Virus record (IMG/VR): IMGVR_UViG_3300030441_000216
Length of the DNA stretch: 64,000 nt
Origin: a virus
Reading direction: 5' to 3' (one strand)
Part shown: one piece after another, positions 37,629 through 55,502 of the stretch
How the letters are laid out: each line of letters opens with the position of its first letter
How positions within the stretch are numbered: the first letter of the stretch is position 1
Translations under genes and position numbers: made by a program
The notes under the pieces: model-generated
Seen by the model: the letters and a program-made list of their open reading frames with translations, nothing else
Told to the model about the DNA's origin: nothing
Database searches by the model: none

Positions 37629-37639
37629 TTGTTACAATA

Positions 37640-37685
37640 TACCATATATAGTATTAAAAACAAGCAATATATACTATATATGGTA
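37640..37685. promoter_or_regulatory. paired palindromic boxes TACCATATATAGTA-18 nt-TACTATATATGGTA
   Basis: The two 14-mers are exact reverse complements. They lie between gene 37239 and gene 37742. Confidence 0.55.
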
Positions 37686-37741
37686 TATATTTTACATTGG
37701 AATGAAACGCACATTTCTTGCGGAATTTTTGGAGGTAAAAT

Positions 37742-37978
37742 ATGAAATCATATGATAGAATTTGTAGAATTGATATAGATGATATTATAAAAGAATCTCA
37801 AGGTGAAGACATTGAATATATTAGAGATGGAGATAGAAGTGCTGATGATCTTGATGTTATATGTGACTTTATGAAAAAAGGATACTTACATGAAATAAGG
37901 TGCGAAAAAGGATTTTATCATACAGAAAGAATAGTGATAAAATTTAGTAAAATTAAAAATCAAGAGGAAAGATTATGA
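37742..37978 (+). CDS. hypothetical small protein
   Basis: SD TTTTTGGAGGTAAAAT-ATG. Confidence 0.5.
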   Translation: MKSYDRICRIDIDDIIKESQGEDIEYIRDGDRSADDLDVICDFMKKGYLHEIRCEKGFYHTERIVIKFSKIKNQEERL

Positions 37979-38038
37979 CATCGCATTGAAGAAAGATGAG
38001 CTGTTGTTTTTAGATATGATTACGAATGGAGGATAACT

Positions 38039-38197
38039 ATGAAATCTACAATAAGATTTTTAATATGGCTTATGACATTAAACTTATTAATGAATTTTAT
38101 TTTTCCCGAACCAGTTGAATTATGGAAATTTTTATTAATAGAGACATGTTTGGGATTTTTATCATTTATTATGGTTGATTGGAAAGAAGACAAGTGA
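38039..38197 (+). CDS. small 2-TM membrane protein (52 aa, not in ORF track)
   Basis: SD ATGGAGGATAACT-ATG; sequence MKSTIRFLIWLMTLNLLMNFIF...LGFLSFIMV. Confidence 0.4.
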   Translation: MKSTIRFLIWLMTLNLLMNFIFPEPVELWKFLLIETCLGFLSFIMVDWKEDK

Positions 38198-38206
38198 GGT
38201 GAGATT

Positions 38207-38416
38207 ATGAAAATTATTGTAGATAAAATGCCAGATGAACCAAAAGAATGCATCTTTTCTGAATGTACAAATCAGTTGCGTGGTAATTATGCATGTAATT
38301 TATACCAAGGAAGAGGATGTGAACCTAATAGATGCGATTTTTTAAAGCCAATTACAGATTATCATGCGGTTGAACATATGGGTGATAATATAGCGAGAAT
38401 GATACCAATAGAATGA
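38207..38416 (+). CDS. Cys-rich small protein
   Basis: SD AAGTGAGGTGAGATT-ATG. Confidence 0.5.
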   Translation: MKIIVDKMPDEPKECIFSECTNQLRGNYACNLYQGRGCEPNRCDFLKPITDYHAVEHMGDNIARMIPIE

Positions 38417-38426
38417 GGTGAAATAA

Positions 38427-38870
38427 ATGACGTATAGAGAAGAAAATAAAGACTTATTTACAGTACCAGAAAATTATTATTTAGCACATTGTATTAGTGC
38501 AGATTTTGGAATGGGTAAAGGGATTGTAGTTGAATTCAATAAAAGATTTGATATGAAACGAAAATTACAGACAAAATATCCAGATTATCTTAATCAGTAT
38601 ACTCATAAGAGAATTGGTGGTGACTGTCTATTAGAGGGTAGGGTATTAAATCTTATTACAAAAGAGAGATATTTTCACAAACCAACAATTATCACAATGA
38701 GACTTGCACTTGAAAAGATGAAACAGATTTGTTTAAAAAATAATATCAAAAAGATTGCAATGCCTGTAATTGGTTGTGGTTTAGATAGGTTGAACTGGAA
38801 TGATGTCTCAGAACAGATTAAAGATGTTTTTGCAGATATGGATGTTGAGATTTTAGTGTGTAAGAGGTAA
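38427..38870 (+). CDS. macro-domain protein, TARG1/DarG-like subtype
   Basis: DLFTVPENYYLAHCISADFGMGKGIVVEFNKRF and IAMPVIGCGLDRLNW match the OARD1/TARG1-type macro domain (LAHCIS.D..MG.GIA). Confidence 0.8.
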   Translation: MTYREENKDLFTVPENYYLAHCISADFGMGKGIVVEFNKRFDMKRKLQTKYPDYLNQYTHKRIGGDCLLEGRVLNLITKERYFHKPTIITMRLALEKMKQICLKNNIKKIAMPVIGCGLDRLNWNDVSEQIKDVFADMDVEILVCKR

Positions 38871-38873
38871 ATT

Positions 38874-39647
38874 ATGGCAGTATATGTAACAGGTGATATA
38901 CATGGAAATCCTACACGATTAAGTAAAGATAATTTCTATGAACAGAAAGATTTTTCTGGTAATAGAGATGAGAACACTGTAATTATTTTAGGAGATTTCG
39001 GTCTTGTATGGAACAGAAATGGTGAAAGCAGGCGGGAAAAATATTGGTTGGATTGGTTAAATCAGAAACCATTCACAACAGTATTTATTGATGGAAATCA
39101 TGAGAACCATAAAAGACTTGCAACTTATCCTATAAAAGAATGGTGTGGCGGTAAGGTTCATGAAGTCAGATCCAATGTACTTCATCTAAAGCGTGGTGAG
39201 ATTTTTACTATAGAAGATAAGAAATTCTTTACATTTGGCGGTGCATCAAGTCACGATATTCAGGATGGTATTCTCGATTACAATGATGAAGATTGGAGAG
39301 AAGAAGCCAAGAAACTTGATAAGCAAGGAAAATATATGTATCGTATCAAAGATCTGTCTTGGTGGAAAGAAGAATTACCAACAGTTGAAGAAATGCAGCA
39401 TGGGTTAGAAATACTAAAAGAGAATAATAATGTAGTTGATTATATTATTACTCATAGTCCTTCTACATCAGAGTTATATCTTATGGGTGGTAAAGGATTA
39501 TATGAATCAGATATATTGACTAATTATTTGGAAGAAGTGAAAGCTACAACTGAATACAAAAAACATCTGTTTGGTCATATGCATTTAAATAAGGCAATCA
39601 ATGATAGAGATATTTGTTTGTATGAACAGATTGTTAGGATATTGTAA
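38874..39647 (+). CDS. calcineurin-like metallophosphoesterase (lambda-PPase/ApaH-like)
   Basis: Motifs GDIHG, GDFG..WNRNG, GNHE, ITHSP, FGHMH. Confidence 0.85.
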   Translation: MAVYVTGDIHGNPTRLSKDNFYEQKDFSGNRDENTVIILGDFGLVWNRNGESRREKYWLDWLNQKPFTTVFIDGNHENHKRLATYPIKEWCGGKVHEVRSNVLHLKRGEIFTIEDKKFFTFGGASSHDIQDGILDYNDEDWREEAKKLDKQGKYMYRIKDLSWWKEELPTVEEMQHGLEILKENNNVVDYIITHSPSTSELYLMGGKGLYESDILTNYLEEVKATTEYKKHLFGHMHLNKAINDRDICLYEQIVRIL

Positions 39648-39661
39648 AGTGAGGTGAGAAT

Positions 39662-40051
39662 GTGAAAATAAAAGATAAAATACGAAATAAATTAAGAACT
39701 TGGTTCTTTGAGACTGAATTAAAAGACTTGCAAAAATCTACTATACAGATGCAAATGGCACGAAACCAATATTCAGACGCATATAGATTAGTCAATGATT
39801 GTCATCAATTAATAAATTCAATGATGGATGTCGGAACTGATATTCATTTACATAGCGACCATTCTTGGGCTGTTGTATGTATTAAAGGTCACCCAGAGTA
39901 CGTATCATTTATGCCATTATCATCTGGTGATGCTCGTGATGTAATCAGATTTTTACAACAATTCAAATATTCAGATAGGGTGATTGATTCACCTTTTGGA
40001 TTTAAAAATATGATTAATGACCATATTATGGATAATCCATTTGTAAAGTAG
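39662..40051 (+). CDS. hypothetical protein
   Basis: GTG 39662 follows AAGTGAGGTGAGAAT. Confidence 0.55.
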   Translation: MKIKDKIRNKLRTWFFETELKDLQKSTIQMQMARNQYSDAYRLVNDCHQLINSMMDVGTDIHLHSDHSWAVVCIKGHPEYVSFMPLSSGDARDVIRFLQQFKYSDRVIDSPFGFKNMINDHIMDNPFVK

Positions 40052-40105
40052 AGAATAATCTAATATAGAAGTAATTCTATTCAAAGGTTGGTCAGCCAAA
40101 TTAAG
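40049..40105 (+). repeat. direct repeat copy 1 (AGAATAATC..ATATAGAA..TTCTAT..TCAGCCAAATT)
   Basis: About 50 bp, roughly 75% identical to 40410..40465. Contains the palindrome ATAGAAGTAATTCTAT. Confidence 0.5.
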
Positions 40106-40117
40106 CGAGGTGATAAA

Positions 40118-40420
40118 GTGAAGAAATATTGGAAAACAGGTGAAAAGAATAAATTTGGTAAGGAATGTTATAAATTACATTTTAGTCAATTTTATGAAGA
40201 AGATGATGAAAAAAATGTAGTAGCTGGTTTTGTACAAGATGAGACAGACGAAAACATATTTATATATGTATCAAAAGAACTAAATGTTGAATATGATACA
40301 TTGTTTGCAGACAGTATAGAAGATGCAAAGCATCAAATTGAAGAGATGTTAATAGACCATTGGAATGAAGAGATTGATTATTTAGAAAATCGAATTAAAT
40401 CATTTCAAGGCGAAGAATAA
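40118..40420 (+). CDS. hypothetical protein flanked by direct repeats
   Basis: GTG 40118 follows AAGCGAGGTGATAAA; ORF-track 40088 is a TTG start. Confidence 0.5.
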   Translation: MKKYWKTGEKNKFGKECYKLHFSQFYEEDDEKNVVAGFVQDETDENIFIYVSKELNVEYDTLFADSIEDAKHQIEEMLIDHWNEEIDYLENRIKSFQGEE

Positions 40421-40465
40421 TCATATATAGAAATTTCTATCTTGGCGATTCAGCCAAATTTTCCA
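40410..40465 (+). repeat. direct repeat copy 2
   Basis: GAAGAATAATCATATATAGAAATTTCTATCTTGGCGATTCAGCCAAATT. Confidence 0.5.
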
Positions 40466-40612
40466 AATAAAAGTAACAAGAATTATTTTTTCCTATGGTC
40501 TTTGCAGACGTGCAAATTCTATAGGATTTTACAACAAAATAATTAAGAAGAAAGGATTTAACAGTAAATTCTAGGTAATTATGGTTACGTAACCTCTGTA
40601 AAATAGTGTATT

Positions 40613-41536
40613 TTGACAGAGAATAATGAAAAAAATAATTCTCAAGGGCTACGAGTATTAAGTTTATGTGGTGGCGTTGAAACAGGATTGTATGCGTTAC
40701 AGCAGCTCGGAATATCTATAAGAGAATATCATACATATGAAATTTTGCCAGAAGCCATAGCGGTTTCTCAGTACCATTTTCCGTTTGTGGTACATCATGG
40801 CGATTTATATGAAGCGGATTTTGAACAGTTCAAAGGATTTGATTTACTGTTGGCAGGAACTTGTTGTCAGTCACTTTCAAGAGTACGAATTGAAAGTAAA
40901 GAGGTCAATAATGGTCTTGATGGTAAGTCAAGAATTTTCTTTAAAGCTATTGAGTGTCTTAGGGCAATTCAGCCCAAATATTTCATGTTTGAGAATGTAA
41001 TACCAAGTAGTGACGAAGATCTGAAGACAATGACAGAATGTATTGGTGTAGAACCTATTTTAATTGATTCAGGAAAATTTTCTGCACAGAGTCGTGAAAG
41101 ATATTATTGGACAAACATACCATTAGGTAAATTACCTGATGAATCTCCATTAGTTTTGAAAGATATTATGGAGAATAGTGTAGATGAGAAATATTTCTAT
41201 AAGAAAGATTTTGAAATCTTGGATATGCAAAAGCGTGTATGTGCAGAGTTGAAAGTTAATACAACTGAGATGTGCAAACGTATTTTTAATCCAGATTTCA
41301 AAATGTCTACATTAACTTGCGTGTCAGGTGGATATCAGGAAAAGAAGGTATTAGATAGGGGTAAACCACGAAAACTTACAGAAGTTGAATATGAAAGATT
41401 ACAGGGATTGCCTGATAATTTTACAAAAATTCAGCTTAACAATCGTTGGTTGTCATACTCAAAAAGATGTAGTTTGATGGGTAATGGATGGAATGAACCT
41501 ACTGTTGAATGGATTTTGAGTGGGTTAAGAGAATAA
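40613..41536 (+). CDS. DNA (cytosine-5)-methyltransferase
   Basis: Motif I LSLCGGVETG, motif IV GTCCQSLS (PCQ-like), ENV motif FMFENV, motif X MGNGW. TTG start 40613 with no SD; the TTGACA at the start also looks like a -35 element. Confidence 0.85.
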   Translation: MTENNEKNNSQGLRVLSLCGGVETGLYALQQLGISIREYHTYEILPEAIAVSQYHFPFVVHHGDLYEADFEQFKGFDLLLAGTCCQSLSRVRIESKEVNNGLDGKSRIFFKAIECLRAIQPKYFMFENVIPSSDEDLKTMTECIGVEPILIDSGKFSAQSRERYYWTNIPLGKLPDESPLVLKDIMENSVDEKYFYKKDFEILDMQKRVCAELKVNTTEMCKRIFNPDFKMSTLTCVSGGYQEKKVLDRGKPRKLTEVEYERLQGLPDNFTKIQLNNRWLSYSKRCSLMGNGWNEPTVEWILSGLRE

Positions 41537-41593
41537 AAGAAAGGAGTAAGAGGTTTGGTATACCGAAAACGCAGCGTTTACTCCTGATACATA

Positions 41594-42097
41594 ATGATAA
41601 TAAATAGAATTTGGCAGATGCCAAGTAGTAATACATTTTCAATTAAGCCAATTAAGGAATTGATTGAGAAATATGCAACTGGTAAGATTGTTGATCCGTT
41701 TGCAAATAGTAATAAGCTGGCAACAGTAACAAATGACTTAGATACACAATATGATACTGATTACCATATGGACGCACTGAATTTCTTAAAGATATTCGAT
41801 GATAACTCAGTAGATACAGTGCTATATGATCCACCATACTCGCCACGACAGGTAAGCGAATGTTACAAAAATCTTGGACAGACAGTAAATATGCAGACAA
41901 CACAAGCTTCATATTGGTCTAAACAGAAGGAACAGATAGGAAGAATTGTAAAGAAAGATGGCATTGTAATTACTTGTAGCTGGAATAGTGGTGGCATTGG
42001 TAAGAAGTATGGCTTTGAAATTCAGGAAATTTTACTTGTTCCTCATGGTGGTTGGCACAATGACACGATTGTTGTGGTTGAAAAGAAGATTGAGTAG
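41594..42097 (+). CDS. DNA methyltransferase, N4/N6 DPPY class (small)
   Basis: VLYDPPYSPRQ motif. Start ATG 41594 or 41618. The 5' leader forms the hairpin AGGAGTAA-27 nt-TTACTCCT, which sequesters the SD. Confidence 0.75.
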   Translation: MIINRIWQMPSSNTFSIKPIKELIEKYATGKIVDPFANSNKLATVTNDLDTQYDTDYHMDALNFLKIFDDNSVDTVLYDPPYSPRQVSECYKNLGQTVNMQTTQASYWSKQKEQIGRIVKKDGIVITCSWNSGGIGKKYGFEIQEILLVPHGGWHNDTIVVVEKKIE

Positions 42098-42163
42098 AGA
42101 ATAACAGAATATGAAGTTCGCAGGAAAGCGGAATTTCTTATGGGCGAAAGGAGAGAGAATTAT

Positions 42164-42370
42164 ATGAAATTAGTGCAAAATTATAGAGCTGATGGAAGAA
42201 TACCAACTGATGATGAAATAAATCAGTGTATTGAAATTGCAAATAGAGAGGATTGTATCGTTCATTTGGAATGGGTTTTTCCATATAGCGGAAGATATTC
42301 AGTAGATATTGTCAAAGGAATGGCTTACGAAGCTGTAAAAAATAAGTTGCCAAAATGTTATCCAGTATAA
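42164..42370 (+). CDS. hypothetical small protein
   Basis: ATG 42164 follows GAAAGGAGAGAGAATTAT. Confidence 0.5.
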   Translation: MKLVQNYRADGRIPTDDEINQCIEIANREDCIVHLEWVFPYSGRYSVDIVKGMAYEAVKNKLPKCYPV

Positions 42371-42381
42371 GGGGGATTGTA

Positions 42382-42657
42382 ATGAGTAAAGCTGTTTTAA
42401 TGATGGATATGCCAAATAGTTGTGATAAATGTCCATGTTTTTGTGGTCATTATTCTGATATGTGTTGCATGGCTTTAAATAACCGTACAATTAATTATCC
42501 TTATCCGAAAGATTTTAGACAAAGATGGTGTCCATTAAAAGAATTGCCAGAAGAGACACACAATAATGAGTATATGGACGAATATTGCGATGGTTATGAT
42601 GATGGTTGGAACTCATTAAGAAAGAAAATTTTAGGCGAAGATGAGGAGGATAAATAG
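42382..42657 (+). CDS. Cys-rich hypothetical protein (CDKCPCFCGH...CCM)
   Basis: ATG 42382 follows AAGGGGGATTGTA. Confidence 0.5.
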   Translation: MSKAVLMMDMPNSCDKCPCFCGHYSDMCCMALNNRTINYPYPKDFRQRWCPLKELPEETHNNEYMDEYCDGYDDGWNSLRKKILGEDEEDK

Positions 42658-43161
42658 ATGACAGTTGGTGTAAAAATATGTGAAGCAAAAGATACAATTA
42701 AGAAATACGAAAACCTTGGGTATAGATTTGTTAGTGAAGAAAATGTGGGTGAAGGATATTTAAAACTTAACTTCAGAGATCCAATTGTTCCAGAAGAGAA
42801 TAATACAACAGATATTCAATTTCATGAAGGTGATTATGTAGAAAATAGTGATGGCAAAGTTGGATATATTTCATCCATTTGTCATTGTGATGAGTGCAAG
42901 AGGCGTGGATTCTTTGAACCAACTATTAAATATTCCGATGGAACAACAGATTACATTAGCAATTATTCTGTTAAAACTGTTTCGTCTGATTATAAGCAGA
43001 TTGGAACTCAGAAGTTTTCAACAGAAGATATATTGAAAAATAAAATAGCTGCACTTGAAAAAGAGAATAAAGAATTAACTGAAAAGGTAAATTATTTGAC
43101 TGATAGAAATCATGAATTGCTCAGTCTATGCTGCTTTTATGATATGGAAAGGAACGGATGA
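42658..43161 (+). CDS. hypothetical protein with C-terminal coiled coil
   Basis: SD GAGGAGGATAAATAG-ATG; contains CHCDECKRRG. Confidence 0.6.
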   Translation: MTVGVKICEAKDTIKKYENLGYRFVSEENVGEGYLKLNFRDPIVPEENNTTDIQFHEGDYVENSDGKVGYISSICHCDECKRRGFFEPTIKYSDGTTDYISNYSVKTVSSDYKQIGTQKFSTEDILKNKIAALEKENKELTEKVNYLTDRNHELLSLCCFYDMERNG

Positions 43162-43165
43162 GACA

Positions 43166-43363
43166 ATGGTAGATATTCAATGTAAAGACGGAAAATATAT
43201 TATTGACGCAAGAATTCATAGTGAAGTTGATACAAATGATATTGCAAAAGTGCAGGAAAGATTTACTTCTGATTGTGCTTATGAGTTTGCAGAAGCTATG
43301 AGAGAAGCAGTAAACGTTAGCCATTTGGTAATGAAAGAACAAAGAAAAGAGGTAACAAAATGA
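43166..43363 (+). CDS. hypothetical small protein, start uncertain
   Basis: ORF-track 43112..43363, with ATG 43166 chosen just after the upstream stop. Confidence 0.4.
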   Translation: MVDIQCKDGKYIIDARIHSEVDTNDIAKVQERFTSDCAYEFAEAMREAVNVSHLVMKEQRKEVTK

Positions 43364-43872
43364 GAGAAACATTAATTGTTGTAGATATGCAGAATGATTT
43401 TATTGATGGAACACTTGGTACAAAGGAAGCACAGGCGATTGTATCAAATGTAGCAAAGAAAATTAAGGAGTACAAGGATGCTGGTAAACAGGTAATCTTT
43501 ACAAGAGACACACATCCCGAGAATTATTTAGAGACATATGAAGGTATACATCTTCCTGTTACTCACTGTGTAAAGAATACTGCTGGTTGGCAGATTTTAG
43601 ATAAGTTAGATTTTGATATTGATAATGACATTCTGATTGACAAAATTACTTTTGGATGGACTCATTGGGATGATTTTAGATTTGAAAGCGTTGAGATTTG
43701 CGGATTATGCACCGATATCTGCGTGATTTCAAATGCACTTATTATTAGAGCAAACTATCCTGAGATTGATATTACAGTAGATGCAAGCTGTTGTGCAGGT
43801 GTCACACCTGATACTCACAAGGCTGCATTAGCAACTATGAAGATGTGTCAGATTGAAGTGATTGGAGAGTAG
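43360..43872 (+). CDS. pncA: isochorismatase-family hydrolase, nicotinamidase (PncA)-like
   Basis: LIVVDMQNDFIDG (Asp), K in the KNTAGW region, and the catalytic Cys context CGLCTDICVISNAL. Confidence 0.8.
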   Translation: MRETLIVVDMQNDFIDGTLGTKEAQAIVSNVAKKIKEYKDAGKQVIFTRDTHPENYLETYEGIHLPVTHCVKNTAGWQILDKLDFDIDNDILIDKITFGWTHWDDFRFESVEICGLCTDICVISNALIIRANYPEIDITVDASCCAGVTPDTHKAALATMKMCQIEVIGE

Positions 43873-43875
43873 AAT

Positions 43876-44712
43876 ATGATTAAAATTAATGGCGATATTG
43901 TAACAATCAATAAGTTCCCAGATGGAACACCAAGAGTAAATATTGATATAAACAACATTGAGGAAGACTCTTATGATGGCTCTCCTTGTATTTGGATTGA
44001 ATGGATTTATGAGAGTAACGATGAGATATTTTATCTGATGTTAGTAAAGAAACATCTTGAAAGATTTTTTACTAATGTGGATTATTATTTGTCTCTTCCA
44101 TATATTCCTAATGCACGAATGGATAGAGTAAAAAATGATGATGAAGTATTCACATTGAAGTATTTTTGCGATTTTATCAATTGGTTAGGATTTTCATCAG
44201 TTTATGTTTTAGATGCTCATAGCGATGTTTCTACTGCATTACTCAATAATTGTGTAAAAGAAAATCCAAAAGAGTATGTTGATAAAGCTATTTCAAAGAT
44301 TGGTATGAGAAATCTTGTACTTTATTTTCCAGATGCAGGTGCAGCTAAGAGATATTCAGATTTATTCCCTGAGTTACCGTATTGTTATGGTGAAAAGAAG
44401 AGAGATTGGAAGACTGGTAAAATCCTTGGATTAGACATTAGAACAAATGGTATTGATTTGAAGGATAAAGCTGTGTTAATGATTGATGATATTATCGCAT
44501 ATGGCGGTTCACTTTATTATAGTGCAGAAGAATTAAAGAAACATGGTGTAACTGAGATTTATGCGTATGCAACACATACAGAGAATTCAATTCTTGATAA
44601 AGAAAAAGGAACGTTGATCAAGTCTTTGGAGAATAATACAGTGAACAGATTATTTACGACAAACAGTTTATTTAATGGTAGTCATGAAAAAATTACAGTT
44701 ATGGAGGTTTAA
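43876..44712 (+). CDS. ribose-phosphate pyrophosphokinase (Prs)-family protein, candidate ADPR-pyrophosphate synthetase (Adps-like)
   Basis: Aligns by eye to Prs: KFPDGTPRVNI, LPYIPNARMDRV, VLDAHSD, FPDAGAAKRYSDL, VLMIDDIIAYGGSL...IYAYATH (PRPP-binding loop). Confidence 0.85.
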   Translation: MIKINGDIVTINKFPDGTPRVNIDINNIEEDSYDGSPCIWIEWIYESNDEIFYLMLVKKHLERFFTNVDYYLSLPYIPNARMDRVKNDDEVFTLKYFCDFINWLGFSSVYVLDAHSDVSTALLNNCVKENPKEYVDKAISKIGMRNLVLYFPDAGAAKRYSDLFPELPYCYGEKKRDWKTGKILGLDIRTNGIDLKDKAVLMIDDIIAYGGSLYYSAEELKKHGVTEIYAYATHTENSILDKEKGTLIKSLENNTVNRLFTTNSLFNGSHEKITVMEV

Positions 44713-44716
44713 AATT

Positions 44717-46177
44717 ATGGATAACACAATGGCTTTATTATTATCAGATACTTATAAACAGTGTCATGATCGCATGTACCCAAATGGTTTGACTAAATTG
44801 GTGTCGTATTGGGTGCCTAGAAAATCAATGTTAGAGAATCAGAATGAAATGGTTTTCTTTGGATTACAGGCATTTATCAAAGAATATTTAATGGGATATT
44901 TTCAGAAAAATTTCTTCGATTTATCGGAAGATGAGATGCTAACTCTTTATACAGATTCGATGGACGTACAGATTGGTAGAGACAACTATGATTTAGATAA
45001 AATTGTAGAGCTTCACAGATTAAGATATTTACCACTTGAGATTAGAGCATTACCAGAAGGTACACTTGTTCCTATGGGTGTTCCTTGTATTGAGATTACA
45101 AATACGGATGATAAATTTGCTTGGCTTGTTCAGTGGATCGAATGTATTCTTCAGGTAGAATTATGGAAGCCTTGTTGTCATGCAACTATCGGTCATATGT
45201 ATCGTGAGATTGCAGATTATTGGTATAACAAGACAACAGACGGGTTGCCTGGAAATATGGCTTGTGCAGATTTTGGCATGAGAGGAATGTCTTGTATGGA
45301 TGAAGCTACAAGATGTTCAGCATCATGGTTGCTTTCATTTAATAAGACATCTACAATTCCAGCAATTAATTATATTGATAGATATTACAATGCCGATTGT
45401 AAGAATAATGGTATTGGAATCGGTGCTGTCTCAACTGAGCATTCTGTAATGGGGGCTAATTTCTCAATTGATGGAGATGAGATTACGTTCGTTAAGAGAC
45501 TTTTAACAGAGTTATATCCAAATACATCATTTAGTATGGTTTCAGATACTTATGATTATTGGAATATGGTAAATAATATTCTTCCACAGTGTAAAGAAGA
45601 GATTATGAATCATAATGGAAAGCTCTTGGTTCGTCCTGATAGTGGTGATATTGTAGAGATTTCAGTTAAGACAGTTGAAAGGTTATGGGAGATTTTTGGT
45701 GGTTCTGTAAATGGTAAAGGTTATAAGGTATTAAATCCGCATATCGGTATTATTTATGGTGATGGCTGCACACTTTCTAATGTAGAAACTATTTGGAAAG
45801 AATTAGAAAAGCGTGGTTTCGCAGCTAATAATATTGCTTATGGTGTAGGAGCTTTTTGCTTCACTGCAATCGTTGAAAATGGCAAGATGATTGTTGTTAC
45901 AAGAGATACTTTTGGTATTGCAATGAAAGCTACATATGGAGTAATTGATGGTAAGAAGTTAATGATTTTCAAAGATCCTAAGACAGATACGAGTCACTTA
46001 AAGAAATCTCATAAAGGATGTTGTAGAGTATACGATGATAACGGTGAATTAAAGTGTCAAGATCAGTTACTTGAAATGAGTGATAACAGTTTACTTACTA
46101 CCGTATTTAAAGATGGAGAGTTAGTAAGAGAAGATACATTTGCGGATATCAGAAACAGAATGTACGGAGGTAAGTAA
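44717..46177 (+). CDS. nicotinamide phosphoribosyltransferase (NAMPT/NadV)-family protein, candidate Namat-like
   Basis: N-terminus LLLSDTYKQCHDRMYPNG matches the NAMPT start (LLATDSYKVTHYKQYPP). 486 aa; ATG 44717 lies 9 nt after GGAGG. Confidence 0.8.
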   Translation: MDNTMALLLSDTYKQCHDRMYPNGLTKLVSYWVPRKSMLENQNEMVFFGLQAFIKEYLMGYFQKNFFDLSEDEMLTLYTDSMDVQIGRDNYDLDKIVELHRLRYLPLEIRALPEGTLVPMGVPCIEITNTDDKFAWLVQWIECILQVELWKPCCHATIGHMYREIADYWYNKTTDGLPGNMACADFGMRGMSCMDEATRCSASWLLSFNKTSTIPAINYIDRYYNADCKNNGIGIGAVSTEHSVMGANFSIDGDEITFVKRLLTELYPNTSFSMVSDTYDYWNMVNNILPQCKEEIMNHNGKLLVRPDSGDIVEISVKTVERLWEIFGGSVNGKGYKVLNPHIGIIYGDGCTLSNVETIWKELEKRGFAANNIAYGVGAFCFTAIVENGKMIVVTRDTFGIAMKATYGVIDGKKLMIFKDPKTDTSHLKKSHKGCCRVYDDNGELKCQDQLLEMSDNSLLTTVFKDGELVREDTFADIRNRMYGGK

Positions 46178-46638
46178 TGATTAAAATTATTGATGGAGAC
46201 TTGCTCACTTCGAACACTGATATTATTGCGCACCAGGTTAATTGCAAAGGTGCTTTTAATTCTGGTGTTGCAAAAGCGATCCGTGATTATGATGCGCAAG
46301 TATATAAAGATTATCATAGTTTTTGTTCGATTAATACACCTGAACAATTATTGGGTTCTGTTAGATATTTTCAGTCTAATATTGACGCAAGAATATATGC
46401 AAATTTATTTGCACAAAAATCATATGGCTATGACGGAAAACAGTATACAGATATTAATTCTTTAAGAAAATGTTTTGAAAATTTGAGATCATATGCGGTT
46501 TTGGAAAATATGAGTATTGCAATGCCATATAAAATTGGCTGTGTTCGTGGCGGTGCAAATTGGGAGGAAGTACATCAAATGATAGAGGATATTTTTTATG
46601 ATTGCAATGTTGAATTATGGAGGCTTGACAAAGGATGA
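46177..46638 (+). CDS. macro-domain protein (second copy)
   Basis: IIDGDLLTSNTDIIAHQVNCKGAFNSGVAKAI matches GDIT...DAIVNAAN..L.GGGV..AI. Confidence 0.8.
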   Translation: MIKIIDGDLLTSNTDIIAHQVNCKGAFNSGVAKAIRDYDAQVYKDYHSFCSINTPEQLLGSVRYFQSNIDARIYANLFAQKSYGYDGKQYTDINSLRKCFENLRSYAVLENMSIAMPYKIGCVRGGANWEEVHQMIEDIFYDCNVELWRLDKG

Positions 46639-47048
46639 TAAATGAATTTAGAGGTAAATATTATTTTTTAAGCAACTTTTATTCTTCTCCTGTTACATAT
46701 GAAGGACTTACATATTTGAATAATGAAGCCGCTTTTCAATCAGCAAAAACTTTTTCAGATAGAGAATGTTTCACGAATTTAGATCCATCATCTGCAAAGA
46801 AACTTGGCAGAAGAGTTCAGCTTCGATCTGATTGGGAAGATGTGAAGTACAACGTTATGTACGAAATTGTAAAAGCGAAATTTACTCAAAATTTAAAGCT
46901 CAAAGCAAAGTTACTTGAGACTGATAATCAGCATCTCGAAGAAGGTAATACTTGGGGTGATAAAATTTGGGGCACAGTGAATGGTGTTGGAGAAAATAAT
47001 TTAGGAAAAATTCTTATGAGAGTTAGAGAGGAGATTAGACATGAGTAA
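46635..47048 (+). CDS. NADAR/YbiA-like (DUF1768) protein
   Basis: GKYYFLSNFYSSPVTYEGLTYLNNEAAFQSAK...WGDKIWG fits the NADAR signature (FLSNF...E..FQ..K). Confidence 0.75.
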   Translation: MINEFRGKYYFLSNFYSSPVTYEGLTYLNNEAAFQSAKTFSDRECFTNLDPSSAKKLGRRVQLRSDWEDVKYNVMYEIVKAKFTQNLKLKAKLLETDNQHLEEGNTWGDKIWGTVNGVGENNLGKILMRVREEIRHE

Positions 47049-47778
47049 TTTTGATGTAAAGAAAGCAACTAATGATTGCGTTCAGTGGATTAAGGATTTC
47101 TTTGAACAGAATGGTAAAGATTGTATGGCAGTAGTGGGTATCTCAGGCGGAAAGGATTCAAGTGTTGTGGCAGCATTATGTGTAGAAGCTCTTAGTAAGG
47201 ATAGAGTAATTGGAGTCCTTATGCCACAAGGAGAACAAAGTGATATCGAATATTCAAAAATGTTGGTTGACTTTTTAGACATCACTAGAATTACGTGCAA
47301 TATTGAGGGTGCTGTCAATGAAGTGTTAGAGAGTTTTGAAGGTGTAGTTTCACCGACACCTCAGACAACAACAAATCTTCCTGCTCGTATTCGTATGGCT
47401 ACATTATATGCTATTTCTCAGTCAGTAAATGGTCGTGTTGCTAATACGTGTAATCTTTCCGAAAATTGGGTAGGTTACGCCACAAAATATGGTGACGCTG
47501 CTGGTGATTTCAGTCCGTTATCTCAGCTTACAGTAACAGAGGTTAAAGCTATTGGTCGTGAGTTGGGACTTCCGTCAGAATTAGTTGATAAGACACCTAC
47601 CGATGGTCTTTGCGGAAAGACTGATGAAGATAACCTTGGATTTACTTATGCTGAATTAGATGCATATATCAGAGATGGAATTGAGCCAAACGAGGAAGTA
47701 AAAACTAAGATTGATTCAATGCATGAGAAAAATCTGTTTAAATTACAGCCAATGCCAAGTTTTGTGTACCAGGCGTAA
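47041..47778 (+). CDS. nadE: NH3-dependent NAD+ synthetase
   Basis: PP-loop VVGISGGKDSSV, RIRMATLYAIS, ENWVGYATKYGDAAGDFSPL, DKTPTDGL...DEDNLGFTYAELDAYI. Confidence 0.9.
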   Translation: MSNFDVKKATNDCVQWIKDFFEQNGKDCMAVVGISGGKDSSVVAALCVEALSKDRVIGVLMPQGEQSDIEYSKMLVDFLDITRITCNIEGAVNEVLESFEGVVSPTPQTTTNLPARIRMATLYAISQSVNGRVANTCNLSENWVGYATKYGDAAGDFSPLSQLTVTEVKAIGRELGLPSELVDKTPTDGLCGKTDEDNLGFTYAELDAYIRDGIEPNEEVKTKIDSMHEKNLFKLQPMPSFVYQA

Positions 47779-47785
47779 ACAAGAT

Positions 47786-47829
47786 ACTATATATAGTGCT
47801 TATAGAAAATATAGACACTATATATAGTG
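47786..47829. promoter_or_regulatory. paired palindromic boxes TACTATATATAGTG-18 nt-CACTATATATAGTG
   Basis: Lies between nadE and gene 47890; the second box is a perfect 14-bp palindrome. Confidence 0.55.
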
Positions 47830-47889
47830 ATATTTTTACAAAGAAACATAGATTTCTTTTGGAGAATAAATTAGCAGGAGGTAAGCAAT

Positions 47890-48426
47890 ATGGAATATAG
47901 AGAGATTAATTTTTGCTGCGGTTGGACTATTGAACGAGCTGTAAAGGAATTACACGAAAGAGCAAAGGATGGCAATAAATATTGTGGTGAATTCAATGGG
48001 AATAAACTAACATCTGATATGTCTTTAGATGATGCTTATATGCTTTGTATAGGCAAAACTTTTGACGAATTTAATAAAGAGCAAGAAGAAAGTCGTCAAA
48101 GATTAATTCATGAAGAGGAAGAACACAAAAGAAAAATCCCTGAATTATCAAAGTATTGGATAGAAGAAGGTCATAAGGTTTTATCTAAAGATAAATGGGA
48201 AATGTGGGATAAATGTGTTCCTATTCGACTTGGTGATTTATATAGAGGAATGGAACTTGGTCAGTGTTTAGATATTATCAGAACCGTTAAAGAAAAATCT
48301 ATTCAAGATGGAATTGAAATTATGAAAAATCAGGGACATTCTGGTATGTCATGGGGATTAATGAAGTCTATGGTTAGAGAATTTTGTGATTGTGGAAACG
48401 AATTCTTAGAACAGTTGGGAGAATAA
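47890..48426 (+). CDS. hypothetical protein
   Basis: SD AGCAGGAGGTAAGCAAT-ATG. Confidence 0.6.
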   Translation: MEYREINFCCGWTIERAVKELHERAKDGNKYCGEFNGNKLTSDMSLDDAYMLCIGKTFDEFNKEQEESRQRLIHEEEEHKRKIPELSKYWIEEGHKVLSKDKWEMWDKCVPIRLGDLYRGMELGQCLDIIRTVKEKSIQDGIEIMKNQGHSGMSWGLMKSMVREFCDCGNEFLEQLGE

Positions 48427-48427
48427 T

Positions 48428-48691
48428 ATGGCAGGATTTGTATCAAAGCAACCAAATGGATTATATTGTAGATTTTCGAGTGTTACGGATTGTCCTACAG
48501 CATGGAATATGACGAGAGAAGATTATATCAATATGAAAATGCAGGAAGCAAAAGAAGATGCTGAAGATGTATTAGATAATTATTTAAAGCCGTTTGATAT
48601 AGTGATGGATATGTATTATCCGAACAATATGACAAAAGAGGAATTTGATAAATTTCTTGAAGAGACTGGATATGATAAGAAATCTAAATAA
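48428..48691 (+). CDS. hypothetical protein
   Basis: ATG overlaps the upstream stop (GGAGAATAATATGG). Confidence 0.5.
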   Translation: MAGFVSKQPNGLYCRFSSVTDCPTAWNMTREDYINMKMQEAKEDAEDVLDNYLKPFDIVMDMYYPNNMTKEEFDKFLEETGYDKKSK

Positions 48692-48724
48692 AGCAGAGAA
48701 TAACATAATAGGAGGTGCAAATAA

Positions 48725-49138
48725 ATGCAGAATATTAGTATTAAAGGAGTTTGCGATTGTGTAGACTTAGACAGAAATATCAAATTAACAAATGGTGCAG
48801 TCGTAGTGCAGAAAGAAAATAACAATGTAATAGGTGTTTATTTAGTGATTTCGTTCAGAGACAATAAAAACAAATATGGTGGTGACACTACATCAACATA
48901 TTGTAGTTTGGTAAATCTCGACAATGGACAATTAGCTTTTGAAGAAAGATGTAGTCGTGCTACAACAGAGAGACGTGTTCTTAGACATTTAACAAGAGCA
49001 GGTTTTAGTTATCCTTATGATCCAAATTCTCATGAGCAGGATAGTAAGTTTTATAATATGAGGGTTCAGGTTTATAACAATGGAAATTACAAAATGAATC
49101 TTGAACTTGGTGATGAATACATTATGTATGGTAGATAG
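48725..49138 (+). CDS. hypothetical protein
   Basis: SD ATAGGAGGTGCAAATAA-ATG. Confidence 0.55.
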   Translation: MQNISIKGVCDCVDLDRNIKLTNGAVVVQKENNNVIGVYLVISFRDNKNKYGGDTTSTYCSLVNLDNGQLAFEERCSRATTERRVLRHLTRAGFSYPYDPNSHEQDSKFYNMRVQVYNNGNYKMNLELGDEYIMYGR

Positions 49139-49141
49139 GAG

Positions 49142-49511
49142 AATAAATCATATGAAGAAGAAAATTTTATATAGTTTGGCTTTACTATTAGCATTTATGT
49201 TTATATTAACCGGCTGTGCAAAATGCATTAGCACCGAAATATCTACGGTTCAAGTAAAAATAATAGATGAATATCACAGGGCTGCTTATACAACAATGCA
49301 TTATAGTCCTGCGACTAAAACGATGATACCACAATCGCATCCAGCAGTTTATAGAATTACTGTTGAATATAACGGTGTAGAATATAATATTTCTGGTAGT
49401 AATACATATAACAAATATTCAGACAAAATTGGAGAATATGTTGATGGAATATTAGAAACCAAGAAATATGACGATGGCACTGTTAGATACAATATTGTTG
49501 ACTTACCATAG
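49142..49511 (+). CDS. lipoprotein
   Basis: MKKKILYSLALLLAFMFILTGC is a signal peptide plus lipobox (LTGC). SD TAGGAGAATAAATCAT-ATG. ORF-track 49101 trimmed. Confidence 0.7.
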
Positions 49512-49576
49512 TAAATAAATGATATTACAAAAGACACAGTAAACAGAAGTTTCTTTGCAACTTAGGAGGTATAAAA

Positions 49577-49918
49577 ATGCTATTTTCAGAAGCAAAAACG
49601 AAAATAGGAACTTGGACTGATATTGAATGTGTTCCTACTGGAAAGATTGAAACAAAAGAACAGTATGACTATTTAAAATATTATGTTGAAAATACACCAA
49701 TAGATGATAGATATATTAAATCATTTGAAGAATCAAAGGGTAAATATATACATATGGGATCTTGGTTTGGTGGTGCAGGGTTTTATTTTTATATGAGTGA
49801 TGAACCACAAGGCGATTATAATTACAGAATAGAAGATAAAAATGGTGTAATTGTTGGTTATACAAAATATGAAGAAGATTTTTCATATGGTAAATTAGGA
49901 AAAATTGAATTCGATTAA
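49577..49918 (+). CDS. hypothetical protein
   Basis: SD CTTAGGAGGTATAAAA-ATG. Confidence 0.55.
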   Translation: MLFSEAKTKIGTWTDIECVPTGKIETKEQYDYLKYYVENTPIDDRYIKSFEESKGKYIHMGSWFGGAGFYFYMSDEPQGDYNYRIEDKNGVIVGYTKYEEDFSYGKLGKIEFD

Positions 49919-49987
49919 GAGAATAATACATTGAAAGGAGCAAGAGATTTGCTGCAGCATTAAATCTGGATTTGCTCTGAGTAAAAA

Positions 49988-50851
49988 ATGTTAGAGATTA
50001 ACAAAATATACAATGAAGATTGTCTTGAAGGTATGAAAAAGATTGATGATAAGTCAATTGATTTTATCTTCACGGATTTGCCTTATAATACGACCAATAA
50101 TTTTTGGGAATGTGAAATGCCGTTAAATGATTATGTCGAGTTATCAGGTCAATATTTTTATGAAACAGATTTATTTAAGTTAGCTCAAGTAACAAATAGT
50201 AGTCTTGAATATACAAGAGATTGGTTTTATGAGAACAAAAAAGATGGTTTATGGACTCATTACAATCGAATCATCAAAGATAATGGTTGTATTGCATTAT
50301 GGGCGCAGTCACCATTTGATAAGAGACTCGCTTGTAGTAATGAAAAATTGTATCGCTATGAATGGATTATCGAAAAGACCAAAGCAACTGGTCATCTAAA
50401 TGCTAAGAAAATGCCTATGAAGGCACACGAAAATGTTTTGATTTTCTATAAAAAACTCCCTACTTACAATCCACAAATGACAGAAGGACATACACCTGTT
50501 CATTCTTATACAAAACATACAACAGATGGCAACTGTTATGGTGCTACAAAGACTGGTATTTCAGGTGGTGGCAGTACACAAAGATATCCAAGAGATGTTC
50601 TGCAGTTCAAGTGGGATACTCAGAAAAGTAGCTTACATCAGTGCCAAAAGCCTGTTGAAGCATGTGAGTATTTTATTAAGACCTACACCAATCCAGGAGA
50701 TTTAGTTCTTGATTCGTGTGCAGGAAGTTGTACAACTGCAGTTGCAGCTTTGAATATAGGTAGAAATTATATATGTTTTGAGAAGGACAAGGATATTTTT
50801 GAGGTTGGAAGTAAGAGAGTAGCTGAGTGCAAAGGAGAGAAAAATGACTGA
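49988..50851 (+). CDS. DNA methyltransferase, N4/N6 class (DPPY-type)
   Basis: FIFTDLPYNT (DPPY-like) and LVLDSCAGSCTTAVAALNIGRNYICFEKD (AdoMet-binding FxGxG-like, at the C-terminus). Confidence 0.8.
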   Translation: MLEINKIYNEDCLEGMKKIDDKSIDFIFTDLPYNTTNNFWECEMPLNDYVELSGQYFYETDLFKLAQVTNSSLEYTRDWFYENKKDGLWTHYNRIIKDNGCIALWAQSPFDKRLACSNEKLYRYEWIIEKTKATGHLNAKKMPMKAHENVLIFYKKLPTYNPQMTEGHTPVHSYTKHTTDGNCYGATKTGISGGGSTQRYPRDVLQFKWDTQKSSLHQCQKPVEACEYFIKTYTNPGDLVLDSCAGSCTTAVAALNIGRNYICFEKDKDIFEVGSKRVAECKGEKND

Positions 50852-51050
50852 GAAAGAAAAATTATTAGAATACATTAAGAAACCAGTATTGACCACAGCA
50901 AGAAATAGCATGGGTTGTGATGAAAATTGGTATAATTCATATTTTGCAATCAAAGAGACTTTTTCGATTGAAGAAATCAATTTTATGTCTGATAAGGAAG
51001 TAGCGAATCTCGTAAGACTTGGAGATTCAATGTCGGAAGCATTGTATTAA
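50844..51050 (+). CDS. hypothetical small protein
   Basis: SD AAAGGAGAGAAAA-ATG; overlaps the upstream gene end. Confidence 0.45.
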   Translation: MTEKEKLLEYIKKPVLTTARNSMGCDENWYNSYFAIKETFSIEEINFMSDKEVANLVRLGDSMSEALY

Positions 51051-51117
51051 AAATAAGAATAATGAAAGGAGACGAGGTTCGTGTACACAAGAAGGAATTC
51101 CTTACTCCAAGTAATTT

Positions 51118-51840
51118 ATGAAATACGTTGGTAGCAAAAATAGATTAAGCAAAGATTTAGCACCAATTATTCAATCATATATAACTAATGAGACGGAAGG
51201 ATATTTAGAGCCTTTCGTTGGTGGTGCTAATATGATTGATAAAATTAAATGCGATAAAAAAATAGGTACAGACAATCACAAATATTTAATTGCTGTACTT
51301 AAAAAGTTATCTGAAGGTTGGACACCGCCAGAAGACATTACAGAAGAAAAATATAAGGATATTCAAAATAATAAAGAAGGATATCCAGATTATTTGGTTG
51401 GATATGTTGGGTTTCAGCTTTCATATGGTGGGAAATGGTTTGGTGGGTACAGAAGAGACAAGGTTGGAAAACGTAATTACTCATTAGAAGCATATAAAAA
51501 TACTATCAAACAAATCCCAAATCTTAAAAATATTCAATTTGAAGTGTTCGACTTCAGAAATATTCCCTTAGAAAAAATTAAAAATTATGTTATTTATTGC
51601 GATATTCCGTATCGTGATACAACAAAGTATTCAACTGGAGGCTTCCCATATGAAGAATTTTACGAATGGGTTAAGAAGACAAGTGTAAATAATACTGTTT
51701 TAATTAGTGAATATAACATGCCTGATGAGTTTGAATGTATCTGGCAAAAAGAAACTAAAACGCTTTTGGATAGTAACAAAGAAAAAAGCGATGATAAGAA
51801 TATTAGAATTGAGAAGTTGTTTACATATAACGGTAAATAA
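51118..51840 (+). CDS. Dam-family (D12 class) N6-adenine DNA methyltransferase
   Basis: N-terminal KYVGSKNRL (KWAGGK-like) and YCDIPYRD (DPPY). First in-frame ATG is at 51118, with the nearest SD 40 nt upstream. Confidence 0.8.
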   Translation: MKYVGSKNRLSKDLAPIIQSYITNETEGYLEPFVGGANMIDKIKCDKKIGTDNHKYLIAVLKKLSEGWTPPEDITEEKYKDIQNNKEGYPDYLVGYVGFQLSYGGKWFGGYRRDKVGKRNYSLEAYKNTIKQIPNLKNIQFEVFDFRNIPLEKIKNYVIYCDIPYRDTTKYSTGGFPYEEFYEWVKKTSVNNTVLISEYNMPDEFECIWQKETKTLLDSNKEKSDDKNIRIEKLFTYNGK

Positions 51841-51991
51841 AAACTAACAAGAAATTTTGGTTTCATGGTTTGTCACGAAAACCATACAATATTCGAGACA
51901 AAAAGAGAATATAACAATGTAATTACAAGTTAAGGAAAGGAAAAAAGTTCACATGTGAGTAAAGCTGCGCAGCTACTATTGGTGAACAAAT

Positions 51992-52828
51992 TTGAAAAAT
52001 ACATATATTAAATCGCCTCTAAATTATGTCGGAGGCAAGTATAAGTTACTACCAATCATTGTACCAATGTTCCCAGATAAGATAAATACTTTTGTGGATT
52101 TATTTGGTGGAGGTTTTAATGTTGGTATTAATGTAAATGCCGATCATATTATCTATAATGATATATGCAAACAGGTAGTTGGTTTTCTAAAATATTTACA
52201 AGGTTCAAATATTGAAGAAGTGCTACAGAAAATTGATTCATATATTGATAAGTATGAATTAACGAAAGAAAACAAAGAAGGATATTTACTGTTTAGAGAA
52301 GAATACAACATAGGTATCAAAGATCCAATTAAATTCTATACGCTTTTATGTTATGCGTTCAATAATCAAATCAGATTCAATTCCAAAGGTGAATATAATA
52401 TGCCTTTTGGCAAAGATAGATCAAGTTTTAATCCCACTCTTAGACAAAAATTTATAGATTTTCACAAGCGACTAAATGAAATAGATTGTAGTTTCTTAAA
52501 TATTCCATTTGAGAGATTTGATTTTTCTGATTTTATGGAAGGTGATTTTGTTTATGCAGATCCACCATATTTTAATTCTGTTGCTACATACAATGAAAAT
52601 GGTGGTTGGACAGAAGAAATGGAGAATAAATTACTAGAGACTCTTGATACTTTGAATGATAAAGGCGTTAAGTTTGCATTAAGTAATAATCTCAAATATG
52701 ATAATCCATTACTTGATAAATGGAAAGATAAATACATAGTTCATTATTTAAAACATGATTATAGCAACTGCAATTATCAGAAAAAGGACAAGAGTGCCGA
52801 TTGCGAGGTATTAATCACAAATTATTAA
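51992..52828 (+). CDS. Dam-family (D12 class) N6-adenine DNA methyltransferase
   Basis: PLNYVGGKYKLLP, FVDLFGGGFNVG and VYADPPYF. TTG 51992 lies 6 nt after GGTGA. Confidence 0.8.
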   Translation: MKNTYIKSPLNYVGGKYKLLPIIVPMFPDKINTFVDLFGGGFNVGINVNADHIIYNDICKQVVGFLKYLQGSNIEEVLQKIDSYIDKYELTKENKEGYLLFREEYNIGIKDPIKFYTLLCYAFNNQIRFNSKGEYNMPFGKDRSSFNPTLRQKFIDFHKRLNEIDCSFLNIPFERFDFSDFMEGDFVYADPPYFNSVATYNENGGWTEEMENKLLETLDTLNDKGVKFALSNNLKYDNPLLDKWKDKYIVHYLKHDYSNCNYQKKDKSADCEVLITNY

Positions 52829-52917
52829 AATCTCAATCTCTGAAATGCCCTAAAATCAAGGCTTTCAGAGGTTGAAAAAGCCAAGGAAAACCACGTTTCA
52901 TTTGAGGAGGTGATTGA

Positions 52918-53079
52918 GTGGATACATCATGTGAAACTTGTAAATGTAATACCTGTAAGATGAATGAAAATGGTGGCATTTATGGTGGATGTTTCGATTG
53001 TGAAGATTGTAAAGAACAAGATTTATACTGTGAAGATTGTTCAATGTATGAATATGACAAAGATAGACTGAGTAATTAG
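52918..53079 (+). CDS. Cys-rich 53-aa protein (not in ORF track)
   Basis: GTG 52918 lies 8 nt after TTGAGGAGGTG; sequence CETCKCNTCK...CFDCEDCK...CEDC. Confidence 0.45.
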   Translation: MDTSCETCKCNTCKMNENGGIYGGCFDCEDCKEQDLYCEDCSMYEYDKDRLSN

Positions 53080-53091
53080 GCGAATAATAGT

Positions 53092-53373
53092 ATGAATAAG
53101 AGACAGAAAAAGAAATTCATTAAGAAGAATATGACTAAGCTAAGGAAGATACATCCAAGCGAAGGTGATATTATAGTTCTTCGGTGGAATCCAGATAGTG
53201 AATATATAGATTTTGACACCATTGTTGAGTTTTATAAAGTTTGGAAGAATGCAGGAATTTTTGATAAATGTGGAGTTGCTATTGTCCCATGTGATTTTAA
53301 GATTTTCAATAATGAAGAGGCTCAAATATATATTGACAAATTACAGAGTATTGTAGATCAGATGGGGGAATAA
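53092..53373 (+). CDS. hypothetical protein
   Basis: ORF-track ORF. Confidence 0.5.
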   Translation: MNKRQKKKFIKKNMTKLRKIHPSEGDIIVLRWNPDSEYIDFDTIVEFYKVWKNAGIFDKCGVAIVPCDFKIFNNEEAQIYIDKLQSIVDQMGE

Positions 53374-53377
53374 GAAT

Positions 53378-53602
53378 ATGGGTAAAGTTGTAGATATGAG
53401 TAATTTTGATCCGTTATTTGATAATTTGGAAAAGTATGTGAATAAACAAGGATGTACTCTCGGTAAAGACGCTGAGAGATTACAAAAGTTATTATATTCA
53501 ATTCAGTATTGTTATATACATGGAGTATTAACAGATAGTCAAAATGAATCAGCTTGTAAGAAATTTAGAAAACAATTTCAGAAAGCTTTATATGAGAAAT
53601 AA
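53378..53602 (+). CDS. hypothetical protein
   Basis: SD GATGGGGGAATAAGAAT-ATG. Confidence 0.5.
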   Translation: MGKVVDMSNFDPLFDNLEKYVNKQGCTLGKDAERLQKLLYSIQYCYIHGVLTDSQNESACKKFRKQFQKALYEK

Positions 53603-53701
53603 GAAAGAAGCATTTCCTGTTAATTTTGTCTAAGAGCATTTCTACACACGGTTTTCCAAAATAAAAAAGAGAGAATAACTAAATATAAGGAGGTATAGAA
53701 C

Positions 53702-53959: not shown

Positions 53960-53971
53960 AAGGATAAAGAT

Positions 53972-55450: not shown

Positions 55451-55502
55451 TTGAGGTAACTTCACAGGAAAGCAACATATCCTTGGATTATAGAGGTGAT
55501 AT

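Follow-up and report, generated by a model that had tools for sequence, protein, structure and literature searches.

Four intergenic pairs of short palindromic boxes lie in the window, that is, the whole stretch of 64,000 nucleotides of viral DNA analysed here, and we consider it likely, from the fit of their letters and positions, that each pair is a canonical NrdR operator lying over a phage promoter and controlled by the NrdR of the host. NrdR, a repressor with a Zn-ribbon and an ATP-cone, controls the genes for ribonucleotide reductase (RNR) by sensing the balance of dATP and ATP, and the phage would probably tie operons other than those for the reductase to the DNA-precursor status of its host by means of these sites. 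Judged by its letters, the DNA site itself is of an already-known kind, the NrdR operator; in the literature searched we found no report of multi-copy NrdR sites on phage genomes in front of non-RNR operons on exchangeable cassettes. Perfect NrdR-type operators are conserved across about 80 gut phage contigs in front of genes for NAD+ reconstitution, DNA methylation and replication-linked functions. If the reading is true, these phages would read the dATP/ATP status of the host to time gene expression and may manipulate that status, and a simple sequence rule would serve to predict replication-coupled phage genes in metagenomes; if NrdR does not bind the sites, the finding shrinks to a repeated phage operator.

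The motif YACYATATATRGTR had 8 exact matches in the window, all of them arranged in four pairs, against 0.00 expected from 100 dinucleotide-preserving shuffles, so that the recurrence described in the first-pass annotation clearly exceeds what the base composition would give. The pairs start at 37640/37672, 47785/47816, 60742/60773 and 61806/61838, the two starts of a pair being 32, 31, 31 and 32 bp apart, respectively, and at 37640-37685 the second 14-mer is the exact reverse complement of the first, with 18 bp between them. The box sequences of the first-pass annotation were reproduced on re-scanning, and its coordinates were slightly off for two of the sites (the second starts at 47785, not 47786, and the third at 60742, not 60733). 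All four pairs are located in short intergenic gaps in the same orientation, about 55-60 nt before start codons on the + strand, and the start codons proposed for the downstream genes (37742, 47890, 60830 and 61904) are each preceded by a Shine-Dalgarno (SD) sequence. In a relaxed scan that required only C4, A6, A8, T9, T11 and G13 in two 16-mers, the four pairs were the only 12/12 pairs within the window, and single boxes with 6/6 positions occurred at chance level (25 seen, 8 of which were inside the four pairs, vs 20.1 +/- 4.1 simulated). The boxes of the sites, referred to as A to D, are given below as 16-mers.

37639..37654, + strand: site A, NrdR-type box 1, ATACCATATATAGTAT; 6/6 conserved positions, nearly invariant among relatives
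37671..37686, + strand: site A, NrdR-type box 2, ATACTATATATGGTAT; conserved positions, linker 16 bp
47784..47799, + strand: site B, NrdR-type box 1, ATACTATATATAGTGC; conserved positions
47815..47830, + strand: site B, NrdR-type box 2, ACACTATATATAGTGA; conserved positions, linker 15 bp
60710..60725, + strand: site C, candidate 'box 0', ATACAATAGGTAGTAT; weak, 5/6 conserved positions, in phase, 31 bp upstream of box 1
60741..60756, + strand: site C, NrdR-type box 1, ATACTATATATAGTGA; conserved positions
60772..60787, + strand: site C, NrdR-type box 2, CTACTATATATAGTGA; conserved positions, linker 15 bp
61805..61820, + strand: site D, NrdR-type box 1, ATACCATATATAGTGA; conserved positions
61837..61852, + strand: site D, NrdR-type box 2, ACACTATATATGGTAT; conserved positions, linker 16 bp

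The candidate 'box 0' of site C was kept in two relatives only (L240 and L241) and was variable in the others. A possible counterpart at site B (47752-47767; 5/6 positions, in phase, 32 bp upstream of box 1) lies inside the end of the NAD synthase gene. Regarding promoters, -10-like hexamers overlap box 2 at the sites. At site C, a promoter-like TAGATA-16-TATAGT overlapping the linker and box 2 scored 9/12 in the promoter scan, and the 3' end of box 2 at site A is TGGTATATA, which from its sequence only looks like an extended -10 element; the same scan found no consensus sigma-70 promoter above threshold at sites A, B and D. No terminators were found ahead of the four sites.

The published NrdR site consists of two partially palindromic 16-bp boxes and, between them, a linker of 15-16 bp whose sequence is free; six positions are conserved in each box (C4, A6, A8, T9, T11 and G13), and two of these, C4 and G13, are essential (PMC13584703, PMC9110341, PMC12051234). 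Linkers of 14-17 bp are tolerated (PMC12051234), and single boxes are not bound by NrdR (PMC13584703, PMC12051234). Read as 16-mers, all eight boxes of the window carried 6/6 of these positions, with linkers of 16, 15, 15 and 16 bp from site A to site D. Several boxes were perfectly palindromic over the central 14 nt, and in every box 7 or 8 of the 8 bases between C4 and G13 were A/T, an AT-rich stretch of the kind allowing a sharp bend. The core CTATATATAGTG was identical to the core of box 1 of Escherichia coli nrdAB, CCCCTATATATAGTGT (PMC13584703, Table 1). On every feature by which sequence defines the NrdR operator, the boxes match it. Among bacteria, about 77% carry nrdR (PMC13584703), a group to which the host would have to belong. 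Heterologous sites are bound by NrdR proteins in vitro.

The association of this pattern with RNR genes was also seen in a scan of bacterial and archaeal genomes, one per species, with the strict pattern ATATATAGTR-N17-19-YACTATATATRGT. At least 120 loci from many phyla were obtained, and among the matches listed were those in Clostridia (gut species included), Bacilli, Fusobacteria, Proteobacteria, Cyanobacteria, Bacteroidales, Patescibacteria and others. For each listed site we took, on both sides, the nearest ORF directed away from it, which gave 144 ORFs, and searched these against Pfam. The domains found were Ribonuc_red_lgC (31 ORFs), ATP-cone (30), NRDD (27), Ribonuc_red_lgN (25) and the class II N-domain (7), together with NrdI, glutaredoxin and the small subunit, and no other function recurred more than 4 times. 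Since the flanks are dominated by RNR genes, the motif is a signal of RNR operons, in agreement with the literature. Gut Clostridia carried the same pattern at their own RNR genes, and at bacterial sites TGnTATAAT directly follows a box, giving the same overlap with a -10-like element as in the phage.

Compared with known bacterial NrdR operators (E. coli nrdAB, nrdHIEF and nrdDG; S. coelicolor nrdRJ and nrdAB; L. monocytogenes), the phage sites are alike in box, conserved positions, AT-rich centre and linker and in a predicted promoter overlap, and an occasional third box in phase is also found in the bacterial operators (box 0 of E. coli nrdAB, T. maritima nrdJ). Unlike them, the phage sites number four in 24 kb, none of which is upstream of an RNR operon or of nrdR, the usual position in an NrdR regulon, and each is trailed by a conserved inverted-repeat leader that was not seen at the bacterial sites. 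NrdR is called RNR-specific in the current literature, and recent genome-wide surveys of its sites covered only the regions upstream of RNR operons (10.64898/2026.05.11.724285, Methods). NrdR sites at non-reductase genes have a parallel in P. aeruginosa topA (PMC4409342) and in the S. pneumoniae SPD_1594-1595 operon, the latter being induced by phage infection (PMC6755750). Both differ from the phage sites in being chromosomal host genes, and topA differs further in its single box and in being activated rather than repressed (PMC4409342).

The inverted repeat trailing the boxes has the form (R)GAAAY-N4-6-RTTTC(YT), with the A-rich arm first, and starts 9-15 nt after box 2 in the four cassettes.

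37704..37717, + strand: site A, repeat core GAAAC-N4-ATTTC, followed by the SD sequence GGAGG (37731-37735) and ATG at 37742
47843..47856, + strand: site B, repeat core with the full stem AAAGAAA/TTTCTTT; SD sequence at 47877-47881, ATG at 47890
60800..60813, + strand: site C, repeat core GAAAT-N4-GTTTC; SD sequence at 60817-60822, ATG at 60830
61870..61883, + strand: site D, repeat core GAAAC-N4-ATTTC; SD sequence at 61892-61896, GTG at 61904

Copies of this repeat without boxes were also present at two junctions in the window (1986-2001 and 18869-18884) and at several junctions in relatives, indicating that the leader is an independent module. Similar repeats with other arms (ATGAAA/TTTCAT, ATAAAA/TTTTAT and TTAAAAT/ATTTTAA) occurred 9-11 nt after box 2 at several sites of unrelated phages. 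As an RNA hairpin it was poorly supported: RNAalifold gave no consensus structure, and free energies ranged from -3 to -10.5 kcal/mol, with only one of the four leaders below its shuffles. The pair count appeared high (79.8% paired; for pair 18-31, GC in 14, AU in 7 and none unpaired) and is biased, the sequences having been chosen for their stems. In a less biased set, namely 17 gene-side flanks of unrelated phages, a stem was found in 8 vs 3.9 in shuffles, and in 8 of the 17 opposite flanks vs 4.9, so that the excess of stems in these flanks is suggestive only. Types B and C lack the ATG that a small ORF beginning with ATGAAA would need, so this reading was rejected, and so was that of a third NrdR box, because the conserved positions are not matched.

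The window has about 30% G+C and a strong GC skew, and nearly all of its genes are on one strand. It was found in human-gut metagenome contigs of 148-160 kb, and one contig of 380 kb carried both of its ends. Just past the window lies an SPbeta-like replication module (AAA_24, YorH, DnaB, PDDEXK and Pol III alpha), from which we conclude that the window belongs to a large temperate phage of the human gut, SPbeta-like and about 150 kb in size. A megablast search of GenBank phages with 15 kb of the window returned nothing, and no bacterial locus matched the window. No RNR gene was detected in the window, and no NrdR homologue in the window or in the relatives fetched. Each of the four sites is followed by one of the gene blocks listed here.

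37742..47778, + strand: block behind site A, assigned from Pfam and PHROG matches; a predicted single transcription unit
47890..60698, + strand: block behind site B, with DNA methyltransferases of the N6_N4 class and the Dam type besides many genes of unknown function; predicted extent of the unit
60830..61759, + strand: block behind site C, short, with three small genes of unknown function
61904..64000, + strand: block behind site D, with DUF488-N3a and YopX-like genes, running on beyond the window into the replication module

The block behind site A contains macro-like, metallophosphoesterase, C5 DNA methyltransferase, isochorismatase/nicotinamidase-like, PRPS-like, Nampt-like, macro, NADAR and NAD synthase genes. 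In the NAD+ gene cluster at 43360-47778, the PRPS-like gene is directly followed by that for a Nampt-like protein of 500 aa, an order that is the same as in the NARP1 NAD+ reconstitution pair, Adps and Namat (10.1101/2024.02.11.579819, PMC13586617), and the cluster is likely a counter-defence module against NAD+-depleting immunity. DNA methyltransferases of three classes are encoded behind sites A and B (C5 at 40613-41536, N6_N4 at 49988-50851 and Dam-type D12 at 51992-52828), and further methyltransferase-like proteins at 2506-6008. Following the block of site D up to the replication genes in one relative (L241), we found neither a further box pair nor a called gap.

Relatives were collected from IMG/VR with the box pattern, which occurred in more than 118 stretches, about 80 of which share segments of 85-95% identity with the window. 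At orthologous sites the variation per column was 0.002-0.06 in the boxes, 0.08-0.25 in the linkers and 0.09-0.21 in the upstream flanks. Part of the invariance at the six key positions follows from the search itself, since the pattern used to fetch the loci fixes them; only the contrast between box and linker and the toggling between 15 and 16 bp are independent of that pattern. The linkers of the relatives were always 15 or 16 bp long, with drifting sequence. Homology among the relatives ended 35-40 nt past box 2, just after the inverted repeat, and the first genes behind one cassette type belonged to many families (8 families in 29 sites for type A, 12 in 21 for type B, 8 in 15 for type C and 5 in 11 for type D). 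One isochorismatase gene followed a type A cassette in one relative and a type D cassette in three. The conserved cassettes followed by differing first genes indicate that the cassettes mark the 5' edge of hypervariable cargo islands.

This arrangement resembles the PeSL cassettes of T4-type phages, in which an intergenic promoter with an inverted repeat is likewise repeated at the borders of hypervariable islands, the cassette being conserved in close relatives while the cargo is replaced (PMC2839356, PMC4122927); in the present phages this is seen at 5' borders. The phage lineage and the host are different, the stem is much weaker here, and the promoter part would be a putative operator of a host metabolic repressor, so that the likeness appears to concern how the cassette works, not membership of the same family. 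On unrelated phage contigs, the same box pairs flank genes for an NAD-dependent DNA ligase (with NrdD 3 kb downstream), AAA_24, MT-A70 and dUTPase. A class III reductase (ATP-cone, NRDD and Gly_radical) is encoded together with guanylate kinase in the early region of one relative (L243, 19026-20351), at a place occupied by different genes in the window. This reductase has no NrdR box pair in front of it, indicating that the phage does not use the sites for their canonical purpose. Another relative (L246) has an extra pair in its early region that is absent from the window, TTACAAGATATAGTGG-16-ATACTATATCTTGTAT at 14887-14934.

As for the mechanism, host NrdR would occupy the four sites at high dATP/ATP, for instance in the lysogen or before phage DNA synthesis, and would then occlude the predicted -10 region overlapping box 2. 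NrdR bound there could also block read-through from upstream genes, which is possible because no terminator precedes the sites. Replication of the phage would drain the dNTP pool and release NrdR, and the four blocks would be switched on, supplying the genes for NAD+ reconstitution and anti-defence, the methyltransferases for newly made DNA and the block leading to the replication module. Phage genes can be placed under the host LexA repressor, and the present case would be alike in concept, in that a sensor-repressor of the host is borrowed to time phage genes; the signal read is DNA damage for LexA and the dATP/ATP balance for NrdR. According to the published mechanism, the operator is bound by a tetramer of NrdR when dATP and ATP are both present, and NrdR with ATP only forms larger oligomers that are unable to bind DNA. 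In S. pneumoniae the host NrdR regulon is strongly derepressed during lytic phage infection (PMC6755750), showing that the signal exists at the right time.

Regarding the identity of the binding protein, the first-pass annotation had viewed the boxes as operators spaced three helical turns apart, bound cooperatively by a dimeric HTH protein and defining a small regulon, with the XRE repressor as the candidate. The predicted operators, their cooperative binding by an oligomer and a small + strand regulon agree with the arrangement of the boxes described above; the XRE repressor as the binder was not supported, because the same pattern marks RNR operons in many phyla without the phage XRE gene. 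A single copy of the motif, CAATATATATAGTG at 26828-26841, does exist in the promoter spacer next to the XRE gene, as had been pointed out. At box position 4 the critical C is replaced by A, a second box at a distance of 31-32 bp is lacking, and the copy lies within a 12/12 match to TTGACA-17-TATAAT (26824-26852) that serves as the promoter of the PemK/MazF gene. We therefore rejected this copy as a fifth site, a lone half-box inside a perfect sigma-70 promoter when NrdR ignores single boxes, and of the five loci proposed at first the four pairs stand. The divergent promoter region of the repressor holds this half-box only, and the motif is not confined to genomes carrying the XRE gene. In the same region, the PemK/MazF toxin gene (26896-27246) is divergent from the HTH_26/HTH_3 gene (26478-26747), a tyrosine-recombinase-like gene (25468-26457) adjoins the XRE gene, and no MazE-type antitoxin was recognised around 26478-27246.

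A binder encoded by the phage itself, either the XRE/HTH protein (26478-26747) or, by analogy to MrpR, the tyrosine-recombinase-like protein (25468-26457), would make the likeness to NrdR boxes a matter of mimicry or coincidence. This has a precedent in SPbeta, where lysogeny is maintained by MrpR bound to an element that recurs in about 10 early promoters, one of them driving the replication operon (PMC10516654), and the present phage is SPbeta-like, has a recombinase-like gene beside its XRE gene and carries the half-box in the XRE/mazF intergenic region. The two systems are alike in having a repeated operator before several early operons, one of which leads to replication genes; that of SPbeta differs in its unrelated sequence, in consisting of a single 15-bp element instead of a pair and in its phage-encoded binder (PMC10516654). 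We recovered the SPbeta element upstream of yorE, yorZ and yosX, about TAGACAAAnAyAAAnAATATGTATA, and an operator of the SPBRE/MrpR type was rejected because this element is unrelated to the boxes. In addition, 100 kb of SPbeta contained no strong NrdR-like pair, the single 11/12 match being inside yonB. The half-box has the defects described above, unrelated phages carry the pattern too, and the exact pattern recurs at RNR genes of many phyla that do not have these phage proteins, all of which makes a phage-encoded binder quite improbable. As to NrdR carried by phages, homologues were found in 19 of 50,697 GenBank phage records, mostly short unverified gut scaffolds, and the peptide pattern VAY[VLI]RFAS was found at nine IMG/VR loci on contigs of 4.6-62 kb, none of them on a contig listed for this clade, a search of the clade that relied on one conserved peptide pattern and on fragmentary genomes. 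Since NrdR homologues are so rare among phages and none was found in the clade, host NrdR, rather than the phage XRE protein, is most likely the predicted binder.

The boxes might otherwise be promoter elements recognised by an RNA polymerase or sigma factor specific to the phage, as the first-pass annotation had suggested as its alternative, since TATAGT and TATATA resemble -10 hexamers; a 740-aa protein (28730-30952) with a Sigma70_r2 match could be seen as a candidate factor, the match being under the Pfam threshold (22.6 bits vs a cut-off of 24). Promoter elements do not take the form of perfect palindromes repeated 31-32 bp apart, and the same architecture is present at bacterial RNR operons, so that we regard this as very improbable. 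The 740-aa protein also gave a Pfam match to GmrSD_N, likewise under the threshold, and no PHROG match.

Another possibility concerns what the sites do once bound by host NrdR. As a decoy or sponge, they would titrate host NrdR while the phage genome multiplies, derepress the RNR operons of the host and raise dNTPs, with control of the adjacent genes being secondary. The number of sites points in this direction, because four perfect 12/12 operators lie within 24 kb, with possible third boxes in phase at sites B and C, and bacteria usually have one site per RNR operon. The lack of an RNR gene in the window and the induction of the host NrdR regulon in lytic infection (PMC6755750) are also in favour of it, as is an unrelated, GC-richer IMG/VR contig (L115), in which six NrdR-like boxes form three complete double sites abutting head to tail in an intergenic stretch of 141 bp (5118-5258), an array that may be a super-operator or an NrdR decoy. 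On the other hand, the sites have a fixed orientation and a fixed distance to leader, SD sequence and start codon and never occur within genes or at dispersed positions; a pure decoy would need none of this, and we consider titration unlikely as their main role. It is compatible with repression of the phage operons by host NrdR. Combining the two, we tentatively propose that a widespread clade of SPbeta-like gut phages wires accessory and replication-linked operons to NrdR via mobile promoter/leader cassettes, that the replicated operators could sequester NrdR and thereby drive the host to higher dNTP production, and that NrdR might be a timing hub between phage and host instead of being RNR-specific.

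Two further features of the window were recorded. A tRNA-Gln (UUG) gene at 32488-32560 was the sole Rfam match, and a protein of 204 aa (24178-24792) matched the AP2 domain with 31.4 bits (cut-off 33.3).
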